DNA of 64,000 nt from Clostridiales bacterium Firm_07. Lineage in GTDB: Bacteria; Bacillota; Clostridia; Oscillospirales; CAG-272. Shown one piece after another: positions 19,057-63,616 of the stretch. Every line of letters starts with the position of its first letter. Position 1 is the stretch's first letter. The stretch lies in NCBI GenBank assembly GCA_001604005.1, contig LVAM01000010.1:273079-337078 (forward strand). The letters are read 5' to 3'. Made by a program: the position numbers and the translations under genes. The notes below the pieces were generated by a model. The model was not told the DNA's origin. It searched no databases and was given only the letters and a program-made list of their open reading frames with translations.

Positions 19057-19132
19057 TGGAGCGGATTACGGGGATCGAACCCGCCACCTCGACCTTGGCA
19101 AGGTCGCGCTCTACCAAATGAGCTAAATCCGC
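19057..19132 (-). tRNA. tRNA-Gly (anticodon GCC), CCA encoded
   Basis: The reverse complement folds as a cloverleaf: GCGGATT acceptor, anticodon arm CGACC-TTGCCAA-GGTCG, T arm GGCGGGTTCGATCCCC, 3' CCA. Confidence 0.95.
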
Positions 19133-19135
19133 GTG

Positions 19136-19211
19136 TGGTGCCTCCGGTCGGAATCGAACCAACGACACGGGGATTTTCAGTCCCCTGCTCTACCGACTGA
19201 GCTACAGAGGC
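19136..19211 (-). tRNA. tRNA-Phe (anticodon GAA), CCA encoded
   Basis: The reverse complement is GCCTCTGTAGCTCAGTCGGTAGAGC..., with anticodon arm GGGGA-CTGAAAA-TCCCC, a GGTTCGATTCC T loop and 3' CCA. Confidence 0.95.
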
Positions 19212-19216
19212 AAAAA

Positions 19217-19293
19217 TGGCGACCCGGATGGGACTCGAACCCACGACCTCTAGCGTGACAGGCTAGCGTTCTAACCAACTGAACTACCGGGCC
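19217..19293 (-). tRNA. tRNA-Asp (anticodon GTC), CCA encoded
   Basis: The reverse complement is GGCCCGGTAGTTCAGTTGGTTAGAAC..., with anticodon arm CTAGC-CTGTCAC-GCTAG, a GGTTCGAGTCC T loop and 3' CCA. Confidence 0.95.
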
Positions 19294-22965: not shown

Positions 22966-22966
22966 T

Positions 22967-22998
22967 AAAAAACCCGATCCTTTCGGATCGGGTTTTTG
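22967..22998. terminator. Bidirectional intrinsic terminator
   Basis: The sequence aaaaaa-CCCGATCC-tttc-GGATCGGG-ttttt lies between convergent spoVG and paralog A. Confidence 0.85.
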
Positions 22999-23010: not shown

Positions 23011-25251
23011 TTACTCCAACCAAATGGGGTTGCCGATGGCGACGAACTGCTCGTTGTAGAGGTCGTAGATCTCGGCGCGATAGAACGCGCGTTTTTGCAC
23101 CGAGAGCGCCACGGCTTGCGGCGCCGTTCCTTTGAAGCGCGAGACATACGCGACACCGCGATCGGAGAGAATGCGCAACTCGAAGATCGCGTTGCTCTTT
23201 GTCGTGGGCGCAAAGAAATCGTCCACGCGCAGCGTCAGTTCCATTCCCTCACGATACGGCACTTCCGAACCCATCGGGTTGCCGTCGATACACATTTGGA
23301 AACCGACGTTGCCGCAGGTGAAGTCGGCGGAGCGCATCTGTTGGAAAAGCAGATCGCCCTTGCGCGCGGTCGTGTAGAAAGTCGCCACGGCAGAATTGGT
23401 CACGCCGCCGTGTGTATCCGAACCGCAGGAAGAATACACTTTCTTGCCCGCCGCCAGGATTTTTGTCCAAATTTCATAGTTTTTCAGCGTTGCGCTGCTG
23501 TCGGGCGAAGCGTAAATGGTCTCCATAAACGTGTGCTCGCCGATATAATAATCAAGCGGATCGTCCGATACCATCATCGTTTTCGGGTGCGGATGCACGA
23601 AAATGCCGCCGAGGGAGCGCACGAACGCGGCAAGTTCCGCAAAACGCTCTTTGGTAAAATGCGGATACCCGAAAGAACCCGTCAGTTCGTCGCCGTGGAA
23701 TTGAAACTCGGGATAGTTGGCAAGCACCATCGCAAGTCCGTATTTGTGGGGGAAAAGCATATTGTAATGCACCTCGCCCATATTCAGCCGCATCGCGTTC
23801 AGCCCCTCGATAAAGGTGCCCGGCTCGGTACCCATCAGGAATCTGTCCTCGTCCCATTCCGGCAAGAAGAAGCCGCGCATTTGACGGTGATCGACGATCG
23901 CCACGAAATCCAGTTGTTTCGCGTCCATTTTGGGGATCCATTCCGCCATCGGCGTCGAACCGTCGCTGGTACCGCCGCAGGCGGTATGCACGTGCAAATC
24001 GCCGTAATAAGGGTGACGGTCGGCATACAGCGCGTCGGCCGCCGAAAAATCGGCGTTTTCGATGCCGAGCACCGTGTGGGGATCCTCGGTTTTCGTCTCC
24101 CAGTTCTCGCTGTGATTTTCGATCTTTTCCGGGACGTCGGTAGACAACATCGGATGCCGAGCCACCGTCTCGACAAACCCGCGCATGGCGCAATCCGAAA
24201 ACTGTGCGTCCTCACCCGTCCCCAAAATTTCTACCGCCGCACCACTGTTGCCGCGTGTATCGACAAACAGGCAATTGTCGGCGCGAAATGTGCTTTGGTC
24301 ATTGTGCAGATAGACTTTGAGCACAGGCTCGTTTTGTTTGCCCGCGTCCACAAAAGTCGTGTTTTCCACCGTGAAACGCATCGTCTGATCGGCACGTGCG
24401 CTGCGCGCCGAGGTGCCCATCGTCCGCATCGGCGAAAGGTTGGCAAAATACGAGTTTTTCACCACGATATCGCACGCGTTGCTGTTGGCAGGAATCTGAC
24501 ATTTGCCGTACGAAGAATCGGAAAAACCGAAAGAGGGCGCGGCGTTCACATAGCAAACACCGTCCAGCACCGCGCTTGCGGCATTGAGCATAACGGCGAA
24601 AGTGCCGTAATCATAGTCGTCGAAATCCACCACGCGCAAATTGGTGATCTCCACGCGGCGGGAAAGCGTCGCCGCCGTTTTGGCGTTATTGAAAAGATAG
24701 AGCACGTAGGCACATTTTTGATATTGCACGATATTACGGATCGCCACGAACGCCTCGCCCTCGTTGCCGTTCCGCAGGTCGCGGAAACTGATGTCGCGCG
24801 TGGTAAAGCCGTCGAAAATAATGGTTGCGGCGTTTGTTCCCACGGGCACGGCGGGTTTTCCCGTCCAATATCCGCCTTTTACCAGCGTTTCACCCGCTCC
24901 CTCGCGGAGCGGATTCAGGGCAGGCATATCTTCCCGTTTTTCGGTGGGCAGGTTGGGGTTGACGCCCGCCTTTTCACCGAGAAGCACGATCGAGCGGTCG
25001 ATCACGAACTTATCCATTTTATGCTCTCCGACCGAGAAGAGTATCACCGGCGCCTCAAAAGAATCATACGGGAGATCGCCCAGCACGACGTCCGGCGTTT
25101 CGGTTGCCGCGGCACACGCCGCGTTGACGGTGGGAAAAAGATTTTCGCCGTCCTTGACGGCGTATGTTTCGCCGCGATAGGTAAACGTATCTTTCGGCGC
25201 GTTCTGGTAATCGGAAACGACCGCGTAATAGCCTTTTGGCAGTTGTTGCAT
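23011..25251 (-). CDS. Beta-helix-like N-terminal region fused to a PHP/CehA-type metallo-phosphoesterase domain (paralog A)
   Basis: PHP-type metal ligand motifs are GDLHVHTACGGTSDG, IVDHRQM, FVHPHP and CGSDTHGG, with a C-terminal NPIWL. The N-terminal roughly 430 aa carries repeated V-x-N-x-x-F strands (VKNSYFANL, VENTTFVDAG, ADNCLFVDTR). No signal peptide is present. The ATG at 25251 follows GGAGGAG. Confidence 0.7.
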   Translation of the reverse strand: MQQLPKGYYAVVSDYQNAPKDTFTYRGETYAVKDGENLFPTVNAACAAATETPDVVLGDLPYDSFEAPVILFSVGEHKMDKFVIDRSIVLLGEKAGVNPNLPTEKREDMPALNPLREGAGETLVKGGYWTGKPAVPVGTNAATIIFDGFTTRDISFRDLRNGNEGEAFVAIRNIVQYQKCAYVLYLFNNAKTAATLSRRVEITNLRVVDFDDYDYGTFAVMLNAASAVLDGVCYVNAAPSFGFSDSSYGKCQIPANSNACDIVVKNSYFANLSPMRTMGTSARSARADQTMRFTVENTTFVDAGKQNEPVLKVYLHNDQSTFRADNCLFVDTRGNSGAAVEILGTGEDAQFSDCAMRGFVETVARHPMLSTDVPEKIENHSENWETKTEDPHTVLGIENADFSAADALYADRHPYYGDLHVHTACGGTSDGSTPMAEWIPKMDAKQLDFVAIVDHRQMRGFFLPEWDEDRFLMGTEPGTFIEGLNAMRLNMGEVHYNMLFPHKYGLAMVLANYPEFQFHGDELTGSFGYPHFTKERFAELAAFVRSLGGIFVHPHPKTMMVSDDPLDYYIGEHTFMETIYASPDSSATLKNYEIWTKILAAGKKVYSSCGSDTHGGVTNSAVATFYTTARKGDLLFQQMRSADFTCGNVGFQMCIDGNPMGSEVPYREGMELTLRVDDFFAPTTKSNAIFELRILSDRGVAYVSRFKGTAPQAVALSVQKRAFYRAEIYDLYNEQFVAIGNPIWLE

Positions 25252-25284
25252 AATTCTCCTCCTTCGGGCTCTCGCCCTTATTTG

Positions 25285-25313
25285 AGTGTAGCGCAAAAAA
25301 AACGCCGTGTCAA
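25285..25313 (-). promoter_or_regulatory. Candidate promoter of paralog A, overlapping the terminator of paralog B
   Basis: On the minus strand: TTGACA (inside the terminator hairpin)-17 nt-TACACT. Confidence 0.5.
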
Positions 25314-25332
25314 GCCGCACGGCGCTTTTTTT
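25295..25332 (-). terminator. Intrinsic terminator after paralog B
   Basis: On the minus strand: GCGCCGUG-cggcuuga-CACGGCG followed by eight U; an A tract lies on the other side. Confidence 0.75.
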
Positions 25333-25344
25333 GAAATTATTTGC

Positions 25345-27582
25345 TTATTTGTCCAGCCAAATGGGGTTTCCGTGCGCCACCAGGACGTTGTTATAGACGT
25401 CGTAAAGTTCCACACGGTAAAAAGCACGGTCTTTGACCGCCAAAGATACCGCTTGCGGCGCGGTGCCGCGGAAACGCGAGGCGTATGCCACGCCGCGGTC
25501 TGTGATGACGCGCAGTTCATACACGGCGTCCGCGCGCGTGGTGGGCGCATAGAAATCGTCCACGCGAAGCGTGAGCGTCATACCCTCGCGATACGGGATC
25601 TCGCTGCCCATCGGGTGCCCGTCGATGCACATTTTAATGCCCGCGCCGCCCAGCGCGTAATCCGCCGAGTACATCTGATCGTAAAGTGCGCGGCCGCTCC
25701 GCTCCGTCGTGTAAAACGTGGCGACCACGTCGTTGCACACGTCGCCGTGGGTATCCGAACCGCCCGACGCGTACACGCGCTTGCCAAGCGCCAAAAGATC
25801 GGTCCAAACTTCATAACTTTTGAAGGTTCTGTTGCCGTACACACTGCCCGACAGCGTTTCGATGTAGGTGTGCTCGCCGTAGTAAAAATCAAGCGGATCG
25901 TCGGAAGCAAGCAGGATCTTGGGATGCGCGTGCACCATCATACCGCCGATCGACTGCAAATAGCGCGTCAATTCCATAAAGCGTTCTTTGGTAAACTCCG
26001 GATACTCGAAAGAGCCGGTCAGTTCATCGCCGTGGAATTTGAACTCGGGGAAGTTGGCAAGCACCATCGCAAGGCTGTATTTGTGCGGAAACAGCATACA
26101 ATAATGGAGGAGATTGAAATTAAGACGCACCGCGGAGAGTCCGTGCATACGGCACCCCGGCTCGGTGCCCATCAGAAAGCGCTCCTCGCTCCACTCGGGC
26201 AAAAAGTAGCCGCGCATCTGACGGTGATCCACCACGACGGCGAAATCCAAATTTTTCTCATCCATTTTCGCCACCCACTCCGACATCGGGGTGTGTCCGT
26301 CGCTTCTGCCGCCGCAGTTGGTATGGACGTGCAGGTCGCCGCGATAAGGGTGACGACCCGCGTAAAGAGCGTCCATCGCCGCAAAGTCGGCGGCGTTTAC
26401 CGCCCTGACGGTGTGCGGATCGGCGGCGTTCGTTACCCAATCCTCGCCGCGGTTTTCGATCTCGGTCGGCACGTCGTCAAAGCACATCGGGTCGCGCTCG
26501 GTTTCAAGCGCAAATCCGCGCGTTTCGCAATTTCGGAATTGCACCGTACCGCCCGCGCCAAGCACCTTGACCGGCGCGCCCGCGTTTTCTCTCGTGTCCG
26601 CGAAAACGCAATCCGAAAAGATCAATTCGTCTTTCTCTCTGCTCAAAAAGCAGGTGATGGGAGCGGTATTCGGTTTGCCGGCATTGAGGAAAACCGTGTT
26701 TTCCACCGTAAAGGTGACCGATTGCTCGGCGCGCGCGCGCCGCGTGGAAACGCCGATATTGCTGTACGTCGCAAGGTCGGCAAAATACGAGTTTTTCAAT
26801 ATGACCTCGGCGTGCGCGGCGTTGCCGGGCACGGCGGATCGGGAAAGCGGAATGTCGGAAAGACCGAAAGGATTGCCCGCGCGCACATAGCAAATATCGT
26901 CGAGCACCGCGCGATCGGCATTGATCATCACGGCGGGATTGGCATATCCGTAATCATCGAAATCAACGACGCGCAAATGCGAGATCTCCACCTCACGGTG
27001 CAGTTCGCTCCCCGCTTTTGCGGGGACAAAGAGAAACATCATCGTGGGATTGCATTGTTCCTCGATGACGTTGCGGATCGCCACGAAACATTTGCCGCCG
27101 CTGCTCCGCAAGTCGCGGAAACTGACGTTTTTGAGCGACAGACCGTCCAGCACCACCGTGTCGATGCCCTCTCCCTGCACGCGGGGCTTGCCGAAATCAT
27201 AGGAACCGTAAAGCAGCGTCTCACGCTCCTCGGCGCGCAGCGGATTTTTTTGCGGCTCGTCTTCGCGCCGCGCGGTCGGCAAATTGGGATTGACCCCCGC
27301 CCCTTCGCCGAAGAGGTAAATCGAGCGGTCGAGCACAAAATGGTCTATGTTGTGTCTGCCCGCCGAGAAAAGCATCACCGGCGCGTCAAACGCGGTATAC
27401 GGGAGCCCGGACAGCACCTCCGTCGGTGTGTCCGCGGCGTGCGCGATCGCCTCGATGACGTTGGCAAACAAATTTTCTCCCGCGCTGACGGCGTAAGTTT
27501 CTCCCTTATAGGTAAAGGTATCCTTCGGCGCGTTTTCATAATCGGCGACAACTGCCACATAACCTTTCGGCAACTGTTTCAT
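25345..27582 (-). CDS. Beta-helix-like N-terminal region fused to a PHP/CehA-type metallo-phosphoesterase domain (paralog B)
   Basis: It has the same architecture and motifs as paralog A (GDLHVHTNCGGRSDG, VVDHRQM, VHAHP, GGSDTHGD, NPIWLD). The ATG at 27582 follows GGAGGA. Confidence 0.7.
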   Translation of the reverse strand: MKQLPKGYVAVVADYENAPKDTFTYKGETYAVSAGENLFANVIEAIAHAADTPTEVLSGLPYTAFDAPVMLFSAGRHNIDHFVLDRSIYLFGEGAGVNPNLPTARREDEPQKNPLRAEERETLLYGSYDFGKPRVQGEGIDTVVLDGLSLKNVSFRDLRSSGGKCFVAIRNVIEEQCNPTMMFLFVPAKAGSELHREVEISHLRVVDFDDYGYANPAVMINADRAVLDDICYVRAGNPFGLSDIPLSRSAVPGNAAHAEVILKNSYFADLATYSNIGVSTRRARAEQSVTFTVENTVFLNAGKPNTAPITCFLSREKDELIFSDCVFADTRENAGAPVKVLGAGGTVQFRNCETRGFALETERDPMCFDDVPTEIENRGEDWVTNAADPHTVRAVNAADFAAMDALYAGRHPYRGDLHVHTNCGGRSDGHTPMSEWVAKMDEKNLDFAVVVDHRQMRGYFLPEWSEERFLMGTEPGCRMHGLSAVRLNFNLLHYCMLFPHKYSLAMVLANFPEFKFHGDELTGSFEYPEFTKERFMELTRYLQSIGGMMVHAHPKILLASDDPLDFYYGEHTYIETLSGSVYGNRTFKSYEVWTDLLALGKRVYASGGSDTHGDVCNDVVATFYTTERSGRALYDQMYSADYALGGAGIKMCIDGHPMGSEIPYREGMTLTLRVDDFYAPTTRADAVYELRVITDRGVAYASRFRGTAPQAVSLAVKDRAFYRVELYDVYNNVLVAHGNPIWLDK

Positions 27583-27614
27583 ATCTGTCCTCCTTCGGGT
27601 CGTTACCCGCAATC

Positions 27615-27644
27615 AGTTTAGCACAAAAAGCCCCGATTTGTAAA
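27615..27644 (-). promoter_or_regulatory. Candidate promoter of paralog B
   Basis: On the minus strand: TTTACA-18 nt-TGcTAAACT. Confidence 0.5.
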
Positions 27645-29424: not shown

Positions 29425-29500
29425 GGGGCATTAGCGCAGTTGGGAGCGCACAACACTGGCAGTGTTGGGGTCAGGGGTTCGAATCCCCTATGCTCCACCA
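29425..29500 (+). tRNA. tRNA-Ala (anticodon GGC), CCA encoded
   Basis: The sequence is GGGGCATTAGCGCAGTTGGGAGCGC... The anticodon arm is CAACA-CTGGCAG-TGTTG. The G3:U70 identity pair is present. The T arm is GGGGTTCGAATCCCC, with 3' ACCA. Confidence 0.9.
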
Positions 29501-36837: not shown

Positions 36838-37134
36838 ATGACCATCAACAAAACGAAAAACGGAACCGAGCTTTTACTTGCCCTTGAAGGACGGCTGGAC
36901 ACGCTGACCGCGCCGGATTTGGAAAAAGAGCTCAAAACGTCTCTTGACGAAGTGACTTCGCTGACACTGGATCTTGATAAGTTGGAATACATTTCTTCCG
37001 CGGGTCTTCGCGTACTGCTTTCCGCGCAGAAAACGATGAGTATGCAAGGGGAAATGAAAGTTTGCCACGTGAACGAAACCGTGATGGAAATTTTCGAGGT
37101 CACGGGATTTTCGGATATTTTGAACATTGCGTAA
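36838..37134 (+). CDS. STAS-domain protein (anti-sigma-factor antagonist family), paralog 1
   Basis: It is 98 aa and SpoIIAA/RsbV-like: LEGRLDTLTAP...LDLDKLEYISSAGLRVLL, with a Ser in the phosphorylatable position. Confidence 0.9.
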   Translation: MTINKTKNGTELLLALEGRLDTLTAPDLEKELKTSLDEVTSLTLDLDKLEYISSAGLRVLLSAQKTMSMQGEMKVCHVNETVMEIFEVTGFSDILNIA

Positions 37135-37166
37135 ATCGACACAATATTTTTGAAAGAGAGGATCTT

Positions 37167-37775
37167 ATGATGAAATCAGCAATCATTACCGTAACCAGCG
37201 AAGGAAGCGGCTTCAACGAAGCCCTGATGATGACCGAAGCGCTTGGGACCGAACGCGGACTTGCAAGAAAAAGCCTTTTGCACCTGCGTTTGCTTTCGGA
37301 AGAACTCTTCGGTTTGCTGCGCGGCATTGCCGGCAAGGTGGAGGCAAGTTATTGGCTTGAAGTCGAAGAAAAGCGTTTTGAGCTCCATATGAAATCGGAC
37401 GTCAAACTGACCACGGAAATGCGGGATCAGTTCCTTGCCGCTTCTTCCAGCGGCAAAAACGAGGCGTCGAAAAGTTTTATGGGTAAGATCCGCGTGATGA
37501 TCGCCAACGTGTTGCTCTCCGCGAAAGAAGCGTTGCCTTACGCGCTCATCAATACCGCCGCCGCATATCCGATGGGCGGAATGGCAGGAGAGAGCGCCTC
37601 CGTCTGGTCAATGGCGTTTTACAAAGAAGAGATCCAAAAGCACATCAAAGACAGCGCGGAAGCGTCGGAGGCGTGGGACGAACTGGAAAAATCCATCGTC
37701 GCCAACATCGCCGACGACGTCAAGGTCAAGATCGCGGGCAAAAACGTCGAAATCACCGTGTGCAAAGCGTTTTGA
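37167..37775 (+). CDS. Hypothetical 202-aa protein, possibly a degenerate SpoIIAB/RsbW-like GHKL fold
   Basis: The ATG at 37167 follows the RBS agagagg; the track start at 37062 lies inside the STAS gene. It has no TM segment and no N, G1 or G2 ATP-binding boxes. LRLLSEELFGLLRGI and the C-terminal DDVKVKIAGKNVEITVCKAF resemble the first helix and last strands of anti-sigma kinases, from memory only. Confidence 0.55.
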   Translation: MMKSAIITVTSEGSGFNEALMMTEALGTERGLARKSLLHLRLLSEELFGLLRGIAGKVEASYWLEVEEKRFELHMKSDVKLTTEMRDQFLAASSSGKNEASKSFMGKIRVMIANVLLSAKEALPYALINTAAAYPMGGMAGESASVWSMAFYKEEIQKHIKDSAEASEAWDELEKSIVANIADDVKVKIAGKNVEITVCKAF

Positions 37776-37811
37776 GCGCATTGAACATCACTTTTTCAAA
37801 GGAGAGTCATT

Positions 37812-38108
37812 ATGACCATCAACAAAACGAAAAACGGAAATGAGCTTCTGCTTTCTCTTGAAGGACGGCTGGACACGCTGACCGCGCCGGAACTGGAAAA
37901 AGAATTCGGAGCGTCTCTTGCCGGCGTCACTTCGCTGGTATTGGATTTTGAAAAATTGGAGTACATCTCTTCCGCGGGTCTGCGCGTGCTGCTTTCCGCG
38001 CAGAAAGTGATGAACGCGCAAGGGCAAATGAAAGTTTGCCACGTAAACGAAACCGTGATGGAAATTTTCGAGGTCACGGGTTTTTCCGACATTCTGACCA
38101 TCGAATAA
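37812..38108 (+). CDS. STAS-domain protein, paralog 2
   Basis: It is 98 aa, with 81/98 residues identical to paralog 1 by hand alignment. It has the same EYISSAGLRVLL motif. Confidence 0.9.
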   Translation: MTINKTKNGNELLLSLEGRLDTLTAPELEKEFGASLAGVTSLVLDFEKLEYISSAGLRVLLSAQKVMNAQGQMKVCHVNETVMEIFEVTGFSDILTIE

Positions 38109-38119
38109 GGGAACGACCG

Positions 38120-39589
38120 ATGAAAGAAAAACTGCGTTCCCTCTTTTATAAACTGCGCGTTCGGCTCACCGCGGACGAAATGTTCCACGAGACGGAGGTG
38201 CAGGCAAACCGACTGGGCGCGCTGATCCTTTTGTGCAGCGGCATCATTCTCGTGCTGATCCTCGCACTGACCGCGATGGGCGTGTTTCTTCTGCCGCTCA
38301 GTTCGGTTTTTTCGCCCACGATCCAAGCGATCGTGGAGATCATCATACTGCTGATCGTCTGCCACGCCGTGAAATGCGACGCCTGGTGGTTAAAGCACCT
38401 TTTGATGATCGGTCTTGTGTTCGTATATGCGCGTCTGGATTGTATGTTGACGCACAAAGCGGCGATCTTAATGGTGTTGCCGGTGGTATTCAGCAGCCGC
38501 TATTTTTCGCGACGGCTGACGGTTTTTACGTCGATCCTTTCCACCGTGGTATTCTTCTTTTCCGCCGCGTGGGGCGCCACGCACGGTCTCATCAACCTCA
38601 ACATCGTCACCTTCCCCGCCGGCACGGTGATGATCGCGACGGGCGGCTTTTTGGGTGAGGCGATCCAAAACGCGGGGGCAAGCGATAAAATGCTTGTGAC
38701 CAACACCCTGATTTTCGATTATCTGCCCAAGTGGTTGATGTTTTCCATCACGTCGATCATCAGTTGCAACATCGCGCGCCGCGGACGGGAAATGGTGGTC
38801 ACACAGCACGATAAGGACGTCAAGAGCGCCCGTATCGAATCCGAACTGAATCTTGCCACCCGCATTCAAGCGGATATGCTCCCCAACATCTACCCTGCCT
38901 TTCCGGATCGAAAAGAGTTTGACATCTATGCCACGATGGATCCGGCAAAAGAGGTCGGCGGCGATTTTTACGACTTTTTCCTGATTGACCCCGATCATCT
39001 CTGTATGGTGATGGCGGACGTGTCGGGCAAGGGTGTTCCCGCGGCGCTCTTTATGATGGCTTCCAAGATCATTCTTGCCAACAATGCGATGATGGGCAAG
39101 AGCCCCGCGCAGATCCTTTCCGATACCAACGCCGCGATCTGTTCCAACAACCGCGAGGAGATGTTCGTCACGGTGTGGCTGGGCATATTGGAAATCTCCA
39201 CGGGCAAATTGACCGCCGCCAACGCCGGGCACGAATATCCCGTTATCAAGCGTTCCGACGGCGGGTTTGAACTCTTCAAAGACAAGCACGGTTTTGTGAT
39301 CGGCGGTATGAGCGGCGTCCGATACAAGGAATACGAACTGACGCTGACACCGGGATCCAAAATCTTTGTCTACACCGACGGCGTGCCCGAGGCCACCGAT
39401 TCCGCGGGCAGTATGTTCGGCACCGACGCTATGTTGGCGGCGCTGAACAAAGATCCCGCGGCGGAACCGGAACGAATACTCAAAAACGTGCGGGGCGCCG
39501 TTGACGAGTTTGTCAAACAAGCGGAGCAATTTGACGATCTGACGATGCTTTGTATGGAATATAAGGCACTTTCCGATACGGAGCAATAA
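38120..39589 (+). CDS. Membrane-anchored PP2C-family (SpoIIE/RsbU-type) serine phosphatase
   Basis: The N-terminal roughly 240 aa carries about 6-7 hydrophobic segments. The C-terminal PPM domain has the motifs VGGDFYDF, VMADVSGKGVPAAL, VYTDGVPEA and FDDLTMLCMEY. The ATG is at 38120. Confidence 0.85.
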   Translation: MKEKLRSLFYKLRVRLTADEMFHETEVQANRLGALILLCSGIILVLILALTAMGVFLLPLSSVFSPTIQAIVEIIILLIVCHAVKCDAWWLKHLLMIGLVFVYARLDCMLTHKAAILMVLPVVFSSRYFSRRLTVFTSILSTVVFFFSAAWGATHGLINLNIVTFPAGTVMIATGGFLGEAIQNAGASDKMLVTNTLIFDYLPKWLMFSITSIISCNIARRGREMVVTQHDKDVKSARIESELNLATRIQADMLPNIYPAFPDRKEFDIYATMDPAKEVGGDFYDFFLIDPDHLCMVMADVSGKGVPAALFMMASKIILANNAMMGKSPAQILSDTNAAICSNNREEMFVTVWLGILEISTGKLTAANAGHEYPVIKRSDGGFELFKDKHGFVIGGMSGVRYKEYELTLTPGSKIFVYTDGVPEATDSAGSMFGTDAMLAALNKDPAAEPERILKNVRGAVDEFVKQAEQFDDLTMLCMEYKALSDTEQ

Positions 39590-39605: not shown

Positions 39606-39650
39606 GAAAAAACACGCCGCAAACCTTTCGGTTTGCGGCGTGTTTTGTTT
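39606..39650. terminator. Bidirectional intrinsic terminator closing the six-gene operon
   Basis: aaaaaACACGCCGCAAACC-tttc-GGTTTGCGGCGTGTtttgtttatttt. Confidence 0.85.
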
Positions 39651-41298
39651 ATTTTCCGCAATGCGCGGCGATCATCGCGTTGATCTTTTCACGGATCGCG
39701 ATATGCGCCTTGGCGCTTCTCGGATAGGTATAAAAATCCAAAACGCCTTCCTTGTGCAGGAAATCCAGCACTTTTTCTCTGCCGATGTATTTTTCAAGAG
39801 TTTTCAGCGCGCGATAATCGTACATCGCCTCGCCCAGCGCCTCGGCGCGGTTGGACATCAGGCACCCGCCTTTTGTGGGATACACGATGAAACTGTCGCC
39901 GCTGTAAAAGCCGCGCCCGCCGGCGGTCTCAAAATAAGGATCCAGTTCCCGCAGGGAGAAGAAAGTATTGTAAAAATTGAAACCCCAGTGAAGAAATCCG
40001 TCAACGCCCGCTTCGTAGAGCCCGAAACCGAGCACCCTGGTGCGTTGCAAGGGCATATCGAACATTCTGCCCGTGTAATACGCGTTGTTGGCACCGCAAT
40101 AATAGACAAATACGTTTTCGGGTTTTCGGCTCCGAAATTCCCTTTCGTACGCTTTGATGGAGGGGACGGGGATATCGACCACGCCCCGCTCGTAAAACGA
40201 ATAGTTACTCAACGCGTCAAGCGTGGGAAAATCGCCGATCAGACCTTTGACCAAATGATAAAGTTTGGTATAGGTTTCCAAATGATCCTCGTGCGGCTCG
40301 TCGGTCAGGTGGAAAAACACTCTTTTTGCCAAACCTTTTTCGGTCAAAAAGCGGCAGAGTTGCGGCAGGAGTGCGGTGAGGAACGCCGCATATTCCGGAC
40401 AAAGCGAAGAGGTTTCCCAACCGAAAATCCTCTTTTCTCCCTCGGGGGTCGAGGCGATGATCTTCGGACAAGCCTTGCCGCCCCATTGCGTAAAGAGGTG
40501 GCTCATCTCGAAATAGCGGATCCCGTGCGCTTCGGCAAAATCCAAAAAGCGGTCGAGTTTGGTAAAATCAAACGTATACGCGCCGTCCTCAAACCGGACG
40601 CCGATCAGTTGTGCCGTTCTGCGCTCCCCGCCGACATAGGTGTCCAGCGGAGGGGTGAAAAGCGGCGTATACAGCAGCGTGTTGCCGGAACGCAAAAAGG
40701 CATCGAGATAACCGGCGAAGACCTCGTAAAACGCGTCGCCGAAGAGTTCCACGTTGTGCTTTGCCTCGATGGCGTCATAGTGCATCCAGGTGGTGAAATA
40801 GAAATCGCTGTCCGCGATCTTTTCGGGGATCACCGTGAGCGCGTATTGCGCCTCGCCAACGTTTTGTCCCTCTTTGTCGAAAATCGTCAGTCGGATCTCG
40901 TGTTTGCCGGGCGCGACGTTGTCGGTATCGACCGTAAACCAGAGTGACTGCCATTTTTGCAAAGCGAAAATGAGATACCCCGTATCCACGGGACGGAGCA
41001 GTTCCGGATACATTCCTTTATCGACGCCGTAAGAATAATCGTCCACCTGCGGCGGCAGATTGTCGGCGGGCATACACAGTACTTCCCGAACGCGGAGTTT
41101 GTCGCCGAAATCGCTTTCGATTTTCAGCGTATATCCAAACACGTGTTGGAAGTTGTCCGCGGGATTATAAACGGCAAGTTGAAAATGCGCCGTTTCGCCC
41201 GACAGCACGGTTTTGGCGCTCTCCGTGCCCTGCGGCTCGGTCAGGGGAAAGACTTTTTCAAGCGAATGCAGTGTTTTCAGTGTCAGCATATTCGGCAT
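39649..41298 (-). CDS. DUF4091-like protein (putative glycoside hydrolase-like, function unknown)
   Basis: The N-terminal pattern LTLKTLHSLEKVFP...GETAHFQLAVYN and the overall size resemble the DUF4091 family from memory. The ATG at 41298 has better spacing from AAGGAGA than the one at 41304. Confidence 0.6.
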   Translation of the reverse strand: MPNMLTLKTLHSLEKVFPLTEPQGTESAKTVLSGETAHFQLAVYNPADNFQHVFGYTLKIESDFGDKLRVREVLCMPADNLPPQVDDYSYGVDKGMYPELLRPVDTGYLIFALQKWQSLWFTVDTDNVAPGKHEIRLTIFDKEGQNVGEAQYALTVIPEKIADSDFYFTTWMHYDAIEAKHNVELFGDAFYEVFAGYLDAFLRSGNTLLYTPLFTPPLDTYVGGERRTAQLIGVRFEDGAYTFDFTKLDRFLDFAEAHGIRYFEMSHLFTQWGGKACPKIIASTPEGEKRIFGWETSSLCPEYAAFLTALLPQLCRFLTEKGLAKRVFFHLTDEPHEDHLETYTKLYHLVKGLIGDFPTLDALSNYSFYERGVVDIPVPSIKAYEREFRSRKPENVFVYYCGANNAYYTGRMFDMPLQRTRVLGFGLYEAGVDGFLHWGFNFYNTFFSLRELDPYFETAGGRGFYSGDSFIVYPTKGGCLMSNRAEALGEAMYDYRALKTLEKYIGREKVLDFLHKEGVLDFYTYPRSAKAHIAIREKINAMIAAHCGK

Positions 41299-41325
41299 AA
41301 CCATTCTCCTTTGATATATGTAGTG

Positions 41326-62684: not shown

Positions 62685-63569
62685 TTATTTGATCGAAAGT
62701 AATTGTCTGCCGAGATCGACGGTGTAGCGCAGCCACGTGGGACGCAGTTCGTCGGGAATCCCCAAAACGCACGCCTCATAGGCAAAATCGTTTTCGTATC
62801 CGATCTCTTTGAGCGCGCGCACCACGTCTGCCCAATTCACGTCGCCGAAATAGGGGAAAAGGTGCTCGTCCGCGCCTTTGAGAGCGTGGTTGTCGTTGAT
62901 GTGCGTGCAATAGAGGTGTTTCTTGCCGATGGCGCGCACGGCGGCGGCGGGATTGATGCCGCTGATGTTGGCGTGCCCGGTATCCAGGCAAATGCCCACC
63001 GCGGGATCGTTGATGGTCTCCACCAAGTCGATCAGTTCATAAATGTCGCCGCCGCAATATCTGCGGTGTTTGCGACCGAAATCCACCATATTTTCCACGG
63101 CAAGGCAGATACCCGCCTTCTTTGCCGCCTCGATGTAAGGCGCGAGATACGCGATGCAGGCGTCGCGGTTCTCTTTCTCCGAATACAGCGGCAGCCGCGA
63201 GAGGTTGTAAGGGTGCATCACCATATATTTCGCACCGAGCCGACGCGCCGCCTCGATACAGCGGAAGAGCATCTCGAAATGCTCCTCGCGGCGAGGATAG
63301 GAAAGATCGTCCCATTGCGTGCCCGCCAGCACGTCTCCGTGCGTTTGATGGACGGGAAGCCCCGCCTCCTCGGCGGCGGCGCAAAGCTCATCCACGCCCT
63401 TTTCCCAATCGTCCCGCAAAAGATAGCGTTTGTCGGAGCAATATTGCCACAAGCCGACGTCCAGCGCGTCAAAACCCGCGTCTCTCATTTCGGTAAAACT
63501 TTCTCTTGCGGTCATAAAAGAACCGTCGGAACGAATATAAGCGATACCGTGTGAAGCGGAAAGATACAT
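62685..63569 (-). CDS. Sugar phosphate isomerase/epimerase (xylose isomerase-like TIM barrel)
   Basis: AP-endonuclease-2/TIM-barrel-type motifs are present (MVMHPYN, LAVENM, CLDTGHANI, THINDN). The ATG at 63569 follows GAAGGGGG. Confidence 0.75.
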   Translation of the reverse strand: MYLSASHGIAYIRSDGSFMTARESFTEMRDAGFDALDVGLWQYCSDKRYLLRDDWEKGVDELCAAAEEAGLPVHQTHGDVLAGTQWDDLSYPRREEHFEMLFRCIEAARRLGAKYMVMHPYNLSRLPLYSEKENRDACIAYLAPYIEAAKKAGICLAVENMVDFGRKHRRYCGGDIYELIDLVETINDPAVGICLDTGHANISGINPAAAVRAIGKKHLYCTHINDNHALKGADEHLFPYFGDVNWADVVRALKEIGYENDFAYEACVLGIPDELRPTWLRYTVDLGRQLLSIK

Positions 63570-63616
63570 AAAAACCCCCTTCTTTGCCTTTCGGCAAGAT
63601 GTATTCATACATAATC

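Follow-up and report, generated by a model that had tools for sequence, protein, structure and literature searches.

Two adjacent minus-strand genes in a 64,000-nt window from Clostridiales bacterium Firm_07 (contig LVAM01000010.1, positions 273,079 to 337,078), referred to here as paralogs A and B, encode large proteins of the same architecture, with an N-terminal right-handed beta-helix fused to a PHP-type metallohydrolase module that ends in a beta-sandwich (Table 1). "Window" denotes this whole stretch throughout. The start codons of both genes were set at the ATG following the ribosome-binding site (RBS), in agreement with the N-termini of homologs. A BLASTP alignment of A with B extends end to end with 59% identity and 2 gaps (E = 0). 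The first 62 residues show 43 identities, and the proteins end in GNPIWLE and GNPIWLDK, with GNPIWL in common. A first-pass annotation of the same DNA had described two paralogs of one architecture with this N-terminal identity and a shared C-terminal end, which the alignment and the residue count confirmed. Its statement that signal peptides are absent was likewise supported, since neither A nor B contains a hydrophobic N-terminal segment, signal peptide or membrane segment on a Kyte-Doolittle scan (maximum 19-residue mean <=1.5). Both proteins are cytoplasmic. The two genes also occur together on a separate metagenome contig of 10.7 kb.

Table 1. Paralogs A and B, their domains and their expression signals, in window positions.
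Feature	Positions	Strand	Basis or remark
Open reading frame (ORF) of paralog A	23011..25320	minus	ORF list
ORF of paralog B	25345..27612	minus	ORF list
Paralog A (P0002), 746 amino acids (aa), beta-helix + PHP/CehA-McbA-like metallohydrolase + beta-sandwich	23011..25251	minus	ORF, BLASTP, NCBIfam; sister of B in neighbour-joining tree
Paralog B (P0001), 745 aa, beta-helix + PHP/CehA-McbA-like metallohydrolase + beta-sandwich	25345..27582	minus	ORF, full-length homologs, AlphaFold2 (AF2), Foldseek
B residues 1-385, conserved N-terminal cap (1-75) and right-handed beta-helix body	26428..27582	minus	domain model, Foldseek
A residues 1-385, beta-helix domain, 52% identical to that of B	24097..25251	minus	sequence comparison
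B residues 386-745, linker (invariant D388, H390), PHP barrel (~411-640) and C-terminal beta-sandwich (~641-745)	25348..26427	minus	NCBIfam, Foldseek, ligands
A residues 386-746, PHP module and beta-sandwich, 67% identical to that of B	23014..24096	minus	NF038032, sequence comparison
Promoter-like site of B, TTTACA-18-TAAACT with TG extension	27615..27644	minus	position only
Promoter-like site of A, TTGACA-17-TACACT	25285..25313	minus	-35 inside loop of the terminator of B
Shared leader/RBS of B, CCCGAAGGAGGA	27588..27599	minus	5' of ATG
Shared leader/RBS of A, CCCGAAGGAGGA	25257..25268	minus	5' of ATG; upstream regions homologous
Intrinsic terminator of B, GC stem, 8-nt loop, T8	25295..25325	minus	free energy (dG) -22.5 kcal/mol, z -4.4
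Intrinsic terminator of A	22966..22997	minus	dG -20.8 kcal/mol, z -7.5

Promoter-like sites of the sigma-70-like type lie 33-34 nt 5' of each ATG. As the scan of the whole region found 4 such sites against 3.0 +/- 1.4 in shuffles, i.e. no excess over chance, the promoters of A and B are assigned from their position and from being conserved in both copies. An ungapped alignment of the 67 nt upstream of each ATG shows 34 identical positions (shuffles 17 +/- 3.4), indicating that the duplicated unit included the promoter and the leader. In the terminator region of B (25295-25336), the stem is preceded by an A-run and followed by a T-run, so that the hairpin could terminate transcription in both directions. 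The earlier description, in which each gene has its own promoter and terminator, the leader is shared and the -35 element of A falls within the terminator hairpin of B, was thereby upheld, for the promoters by position only.

A 1508-aa antisense ORF (window 23095-27621, plus strand) spans both genes and the spacer, in codon register with A and B, and was considered as an alternative coding strand. It was rejected as a by-product of codon bias, because the codons TTA, CTA and TCA are absent from the 1491 sense codons of A and B, where ~6.9 would be expected from the other genes of the window (P ~1e-3).

The N-terminal domain was characterized by structure prediction. An AF2 model of full-length B, built on 119 homologs, reached a predicted local distance difference test (pLDDT) score of 95.2 and a predicted template modelling (pTM) score of 0.92, and a separate model of residues 1-385 reached a pLDDT of 91.6. 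DSSP analysis of the model assigned regular short strands from residue 122 to residue 364, which stack into the three-sheet coils of a right-handed parallel beta-helix. All Foldseek matches of this domain are beta-helix proteins, including phage depolymerases, the AlgE4 epimerase, lyases of polysaccharide lyase family 6 (PL6), pectin methylesterase, PL9 and glycoside hydrolase (GH) family 28, at E >= 3e-3, TM scores <= 0.5 and identities of 8-14%. The first-pass annotation had placed a beta-helix in the first ~430 aa; the fold holds, but the length does not, as the helix ends near residue 365-385 and the PHP barrel begins at ~411.

Among 40 members of the family, PF13229 was weakly matched by 11, with A and B not among them, and none matched the CAZy beta-helix Pfam models, which leaves the domain outside PL1/3/6/9, GH28, carbohydrate esterase family 8 (CE8) and GH91. 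Because the Foldseek matches are only generic, the N-terminal domain is regarded as a beta-helix outside any known family. Its conserved polar residues are D146, D157, R159, N171, R196, R204, D329 and R331.

The C-terminal module is recognized by a single curated model with significant matches to A and B, NF038032 (CehA_McbA_metalo), which gave 78.3 bits for B (E 6.5e-22) and 68.7 bits for A (E 5.6e-19), mainly over model positions 85-315. Both scores lie below the cut-off of 80, whereas the relatives P0100 (83.6 bits) and P0158 (100.8 bits) pass it, so that A and B are borderline outliers of the NF038032 domain family. In the relatives, positions 3-315 of the 315 in the model are covered, which corresponds to the PHP barrel and the beta-sandwich end to end. 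The Pfam model PF02811 scored 14.4 bits with A and 12.8 bits with B, under its gathering threshold of 26.4 and over motif I only. Weak NCBIfam matches to nucleoside bisphosphate phosphatase and PolX (E 0.004-0.1) are also limited to motif I.

Foldseek identified the distorted (beta/alpha)7 barrel of PHP proteins, with a probability of 1.00 to 3e38, 7ug9, the Pol III PHP domain, EndoQ, 2yb1 and 2anu. The best match of the C-terminal half is 3e38 (BVU_3505) at E 8.7e-7. RNase AM and the PHP domains of Pol III, EndoQ, Cv1693 and TM0559 were matched as well, and motifs I and II of the family align to TM0559. At the sequence level nothing significant was found in the PDB, whether the query was B, the full-length profile or the C-terminal profile, and 3e38 was unmatched even at E <= 10.

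The residues D416, H418, H420, D428, D452, H453, E474, H493, H551, H553, D610 and H612 are invariant in the 119 full-length homologs. They comprise the motifs HVHT (H418/H420), SDG (D428), VDH (D452/H453), HxHP (H551/H553) and GSDTHG (D610/H612), together with E474 and H493. In the trinuclear PHP center of the group formed by 3E38 and Sb-PDE, the alpha metal is held by H-x-H and D, the beta metal by H and H, a glutamate bridges, and the gamma metal is held by D, H and H (PMC11656708). All nine ligands of such a site (HxH, D, H, E, H, H, DxH) are found among the invariant residues, in the order reported there, as H418, H420, D428, H453, E474, H493, H551/H553, D610 and H612. The geometry of the ligands is likely to be that of a trinuclear site as well, judging from motif order and fold. 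The earlier reading of a PHP/CehA-type module with PHP metal ligands was therefore correct. None of the findings that the first-pass annotation had named as removing its interest turned up, these being an N-terminal region other than a beta-helix, ligands unlike those of PHP enzymes, and homologs with an assigned activity.

The full-length beta-helix + PHP proteins were named the FAM family. All of the 120 matches listed are full-length (734-780 aa, 43-59% identity) and none bears a functional name, the labels being "hypothetical" or "right-handed parallel beta-helix repeat-containing". With one genome per GTDB species, FAM was found in 55 loci of ~45 uncultured Clostridia species, with 1-4 copies per metagenome-assembled genome (MAG). 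The hosts are labeled Oscillospiraceae, Acutalibacteraceae or "Eubacteriales", with a few Lachnospiraceae, and come from human, ruminant and digester samples. No relative was found on 72,556 plasmids (tblastn) or among 2.9 million viral contigs. A phage tailspike or prophage depolymerase was rejected as an identity for these proteins because none of these viral contigs carries a relative, and the neighbors are chromosomal metabolic genes.

Whether the pair is always tandem had been raised as a question, and it is not, since most loci hold a single copy. One of these, L005, is syntenic with the window and has its one FAM gene beside spoVG and murC. In seven other species, two to three FAM copies stand side by side as an array, with another copy nearby. 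In a neighbor-joining tree, the array copies group by position (1, 2 and 3) into three old clades whose order is conserved, while the window A and B are each other's sisters, indicating that a separate duplication, itself fairly old, gave rise to the window pair, distinct from the older three-clade arrays. In having distinct deep paralog clades kept in a fixed array order, the family resembles carbohydrate-active enzymes in their diversification.

The modularity of the family was explored by an exhaustive hidden Markov model (HMM) search over 1.84 billion representatives, which gave 613 matches, 173 of them below 1e-30. Among the representatives, the full beta-helix + PHP layout is confined to about ten, and apart from truncated products carrying the beta-helix alone, the FAM beta-helix occurs only together with the PHP module. 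The PHP module stands alone in ~35 representatives, 15 of which have a signal peptide or lipobox, and forms the C-terminus of ~49 large secreted proteins of 1000-2400 aa with signal peptides. Barrel and sandwich alone make up cytoplasmic proteins of ~330-420 aa, such as one encoded beside an AraC gene in L055, as well as lipoproteins of ~390 aa. Among the partners of the module are a dockerin (P0179), SLH (P0165), GH39 (P0160) and other beta-helix regions (P0156, P0150). Around the stand-alone relatives P0157, P0176 and P0160, the gene context is short or uninformative except for an adjacent AraC gene. No hidden PHP module was found in the large secreted neighbor proteins of cluster c16.

Conservation follows the same division. 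It stands at 0.70 in the PHP module, with peaks of 0.88-0.89 at residues 451-475 and 501-525, falls to 0.42-0.54 along the beta-helix body and is 0.67-0.70 in the first 75 residues. The C-terminal module holds 112 positions that are at least 90% conserved versus 47 in the beta-helix. Between A and B the identity is 67% in the PHP module and beta-sandwich and 52% in the beta-helix domain, and the window pair has diverged mostly in the beta-helix.

Several features of the larger relatives were observed in passing. In P0150 (2202 aa), a dockerin is followed at once by a complete FAM unit starting from FAM residue 3, which may be a real cellulosomal fusion or a gene-call artefact merging two adjacent genes. 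The proteins P0167, P0169, P0174, P0179, P0184, P0190, P0194, P0210 and P0213 have in common a C-x-x-C ... W-T/Q-x-L motif that lies at the N-terminus, immediately behind the signal peptide, and the remainder of these 1000-2400-aa PHP-module proteins is not recognized by Pfam. Pfam found nothing in 10 of the 16 large or mid-sized module-bearing relatives scanned.

The genomic neighborhoods were surveyed over 243 genes, taking three genes on either side of FAM. Recurrent neighbors are PfkB kinases, AraC regulators, xylose-isomerase-like TIM barrels, ROK, SIS, SulP, GH123, GH4, GH20, UxaA/B/C, UxuA and the aldolase of 2-keto-3-deoxy-6-phosphogluconate (KDPG). In the seven other species, each tandem FAM array has a divergent PfkB gene immediately upstream, which encodes a 2-dehydro-3-deoxygluconokinase (KDG kinase), with E 1e-181 to the kinase half of a KDPG-aldolase/kinase model. 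In two of these species the upstream run is UxuA-Eda-KdgK.

The most abundant FAM member, P0100, whose 90% cluster comprises 614 sequences, is encoded in the order AraC | GH4 - LplA-like lipoprotein binding protein - FAM - UxaB - UxaA - UxaC, the genes being 13-121 nt apart. The GH4-FAM-uxaBAC operon is found in four loci including that of P0100, is shared by three further species and is of the galacturonide type. In one clade, SulP-FAM is convergent to nitroreductase-SIS-ROK-GH123, and other FAM copies adjoin GH20, GH36, GH127, an AraA-like isomerase, or a BNR_2 - DHDPS-type aldolase - FucI - FGGY block. A gene of the GDPD-family phosphodiesterases adjoins the FAM copy of L001. The strength of the context evidence lies in the FAM genes embedded in operons and in the divergent-promoter arrangements.

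Between FAM copies of L056 (13146-18646; also in L007 and L021) lies an AraC-linked block encoding BNR_2 (sialidase-fold), a DHDPS/NanA-type aldolase, an L-fucose/D-arabinose isomerase-like protein and an FGGY kinase. Judging from these gene families, the block could serve to break down a 3-deoxy-ulosonic acid, for example 3-deoxy-D-manno-octulosonic acid (Kdo). A DtxR/MntR-type metal-dependent repressor is encoded directly 3' of the position-3 clade FAM in 7 loci (L007, L011, L020, L029, L035, L037 and L056), two of which also have CNNM/CBS metal-transport-like genes. This adjacency may be mere synteny or a hint of Mn dependence.

Taken together with the fusion partners, these contexts lead us to infer that the PHP module takes part in glycan breakdown, the clearest link being to hexuronate (pectin, glucuronate) catabolism. 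The proposal, to which we give a probability of about 0.5, is that A and B are metal-dependent enzymes hydrolyzing an ester-type group off acidic oligosaccharides that the cell has imported. The catalytic unit would be the PHP module, a divergent CehA/McbA-type barrel whose trinuclear metal site is complete and to which the beta-sandwich is appended. By analogy with characterized PHP enzymes, water bridging the alpha and beta metals would attack the ester-type center and the gamma metal would stabilize the leaving group. The beta-helix, rigidly fused to the PHP module, is predicted to serve most likely as an extended binding platform that sets oligosaccharide specificity for each paralog. The substrates would most likely be imported uronate-containing chains of the pectin or glycosaminoglycan type. 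Acting on these chains, the enzyme would strip off a substituent (a phosphate, a sulfate, or a methyl or acetyl ester) or else open a linkage, and the freed uronates may then enter the UxaC/UxaB/UxaA or UxuA route to 2-dehydro-3-deoxygluconate (KDG), KdgK and Eda.

Within this general reading, the bond attacked may conceivably be glycosidic or be broken by a lyase or other reaction, at odds of roughly one in three; a carboxyl ester is a tentative candidate, the nearest curated family having its name from hydrolases of carbamates and esters; a phospho mono- or diester, which the PHP precedent favors (PMC11656708), is a somewhat more doubtful one, and a sulfate ester is improbable, even though it would fit the SulP/N-acetylgalactosamine (GalNAc) clade. 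It is further put forward, tentatively and at well under even odds, that the CehA/McbA-like PHP module is a new carbohydrate-active class and the first trinuclear-metal PHP-fold enzyme on glycans, for example an esterase, sulfatase or lyase. Its substrates would then be pectic or glycosaminoglycan oligosaccharides, different ones being covered by A/B-type paralogs; the cytoplasmic form would be fused to the dedicated beta-helix and the surface or cellulosome form to other modules.

A number of points weigh against the proposed glycan hydrolase. To our knowledge, all well-characterized PHP enzymes act on phosphoesters, and pectin has no phosphate but carries methyl and acetyl esters; chemistry and context therefore diverge. 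No FAM homolog with an assigned activity was found. About half of the FAM loci have no recurrent sugar gene within three genes on either side, and the contexts vary by clade (uronate; GalNAc with SulP; others). The neighbor tallies are raw counts from saccharolytic genomes, and syntenic loci among them are not independent. In the window itself, the A/B pair is surrounded by the housekeeping genes murC, spoVG, guaB and glpK.

An unlikely alternative assigns catalysis to the beta-helix, as a new glycoside hydrolase, polysaccharide lyase or epimerase on polyuronates, and leaves the PHP module with an auxiliary activity or a structural metal site. The Foldseek matches of the domain are almost all enzymes on uronate polymers (PL6, AlgE4, CE8, PL9, GH28), hexuronate genes are neighbors, and the polar residues listed above are conserved. 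The fold of FAM residues ~60-365 is that of the beta-helix CAZymes (PL6 alginate lyase/chondroitinase B, AlgE4 C5-epimerase, CE8, PL9, GH28) and phage depolymerases, and the uronate-catabolism neighborhood fits the substrates of these CAZymes. However, their catalytic motifs were not found in FAM, the structural matches are weak (E >= 3e-3, TM <= 0.5), and the CAZy Pfam models match 0 of 40 members. Moreover, the helix body is the least conserved part of the protein, whereas the PHP module keeps its nine ligands and occurs alone, and the beta-helix is not found without it save in truncated products.

Equally improbable is the version given in the first-pass annotation, in which A and B are intracellular phosphodiesterases on sugar-phosphate polymers (teichoic acid or capsule fragments) or nucleotide-sugars. 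PHP precedent speaks for it, and the only characterized relatives of 3E38 are specific phosphodiesterases (PMC11656708). The group of 3E38 (BVU_3505), which includes Sb-PDE and No-PDE (PMC11656708), shares with FAM the PHP barrel + beta-sandwich layout and the trinuclear ligand order, but FAM differs in its conserved insertions (451-475, 501-525) and N-terminal beta-helix, and sequence searches gave no alignment between the two. The complete trinuclear site and the GDPD gene beside the L001 copy also agree with a phosphodiesterase, and the secreted and surface-anchored relatives could attack wall polymers. Yet teichoic-acid, capsule and nucleotide-sugar genes are not recurrent among the 243 neighbors, where the recurrent partners are instead uronate catabolism genes and glycoside hydrolases, and the dockerin and GH39 partners suggest plant or host glycans, mostly without phosphodiesters.

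A nucleic-acid or nucleotide phosphoesterase (of the RNase AM/TrpH, pAp phosphatase, Pol X/Pol III PHP exonuclease or EndoQ type) is very improbable: such proteins are among the Foldseek matches of the barrel and the weak NCBIfam matches (E 0.004-0.1), and RNase AM/TrpH and the Cv1693-type 3',5'-nucleoside bisphosphate phosphatases share the PHP barrel and metal-ligand motifs (7ug9, 9etk, 2yb1), but the sequence alignment is restricted to motif I, a nucleic-acid-binding domain is lacking, and the partner domains (beta-helix, GH, dockerin, SLH) and sugar-gene contexts differ and do not fit, the housekeeping context of the window pair not being that of FAM as a whole. As little credit is given to a CehA/McbA-like hydrolase of xenobiotic or small-molecule esters or carbamates unrelated to glycans, for although NF038032 (CehA/McbA family metallohydrolase) is the best curated model, covers the PHP barrel and beta-sandwich and scores P0100 and P0158 above 80 bits, A and B fall under its cut-off, the name-giving enzymes are carbaryl hydrolases (per the model name), and FAM is cytoplasmic, fused to a beta-helix and encoded in gut and rumen anaerobes as 1-4 paralogs in sugar loci, with no match on the 72,556 plasmids where plasmid-borne catabolic genes would be.

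The fold families involved are already known, but neither FAM nor its beta-helix + PHP fusion, its dedicated beta-helix, its lineage restriction, its paralog arrays or its uronate link was found described in the literature as searched. If the PHP module does act on glycans as proposed, it would represent an unrecognized catalytic fold in the carbohydrate toolkit of the Oscillospirales-type Clostridia of gut and rumen, which are abundant but uncultured, and would fill an unannotated step in hexuronate/pectin, possibly host-glycan, utilization operons. About 600 related clusters would gain a function, including dockerin-bearing (cellulosome-type) and S-layer-anchored "hypothetical" proteins. FAM would also offer a testable case of a conserved catalytic module re-specified by a swapped or diverging beta-helix platform. 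Should the enzyme be an ordinary phosphatase, the finding reduces to a new domain fusion.

Elsewhere in the window, two genes belong to families that neighbor FAM in other genomes. A GH123 homolog (39649-41304, minus strand), whose family lies directly beside FAM elsewhere, is encoded 12 kb from the A/B pair, and a xylose-isomerase-like TIM-barrel homolog (62685-63608, minus strand), whose family adjoins FAM elsewhere, is encoded 35 kb from it. A tRNA-Gly/Phe/Asp cluster (19057-19293, minus strand) and a single tRNA-Ala (29425-29500, plus strand) stand on either side of the wider neighborhood. A second tandem duplication is present at 36838-39589 on the plus strand, with two very similar 98-aa ORFs (36838-37134 and 37812-38108) resembling MTINKTKNG.ELLL.LEGRLDTLTAP.LEKE..., each followed by an overlapping larger ORF with a likewise similar start. 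By eye, the 98-aa proteins look like anti-sigma-antagonist (STAS) proteins.

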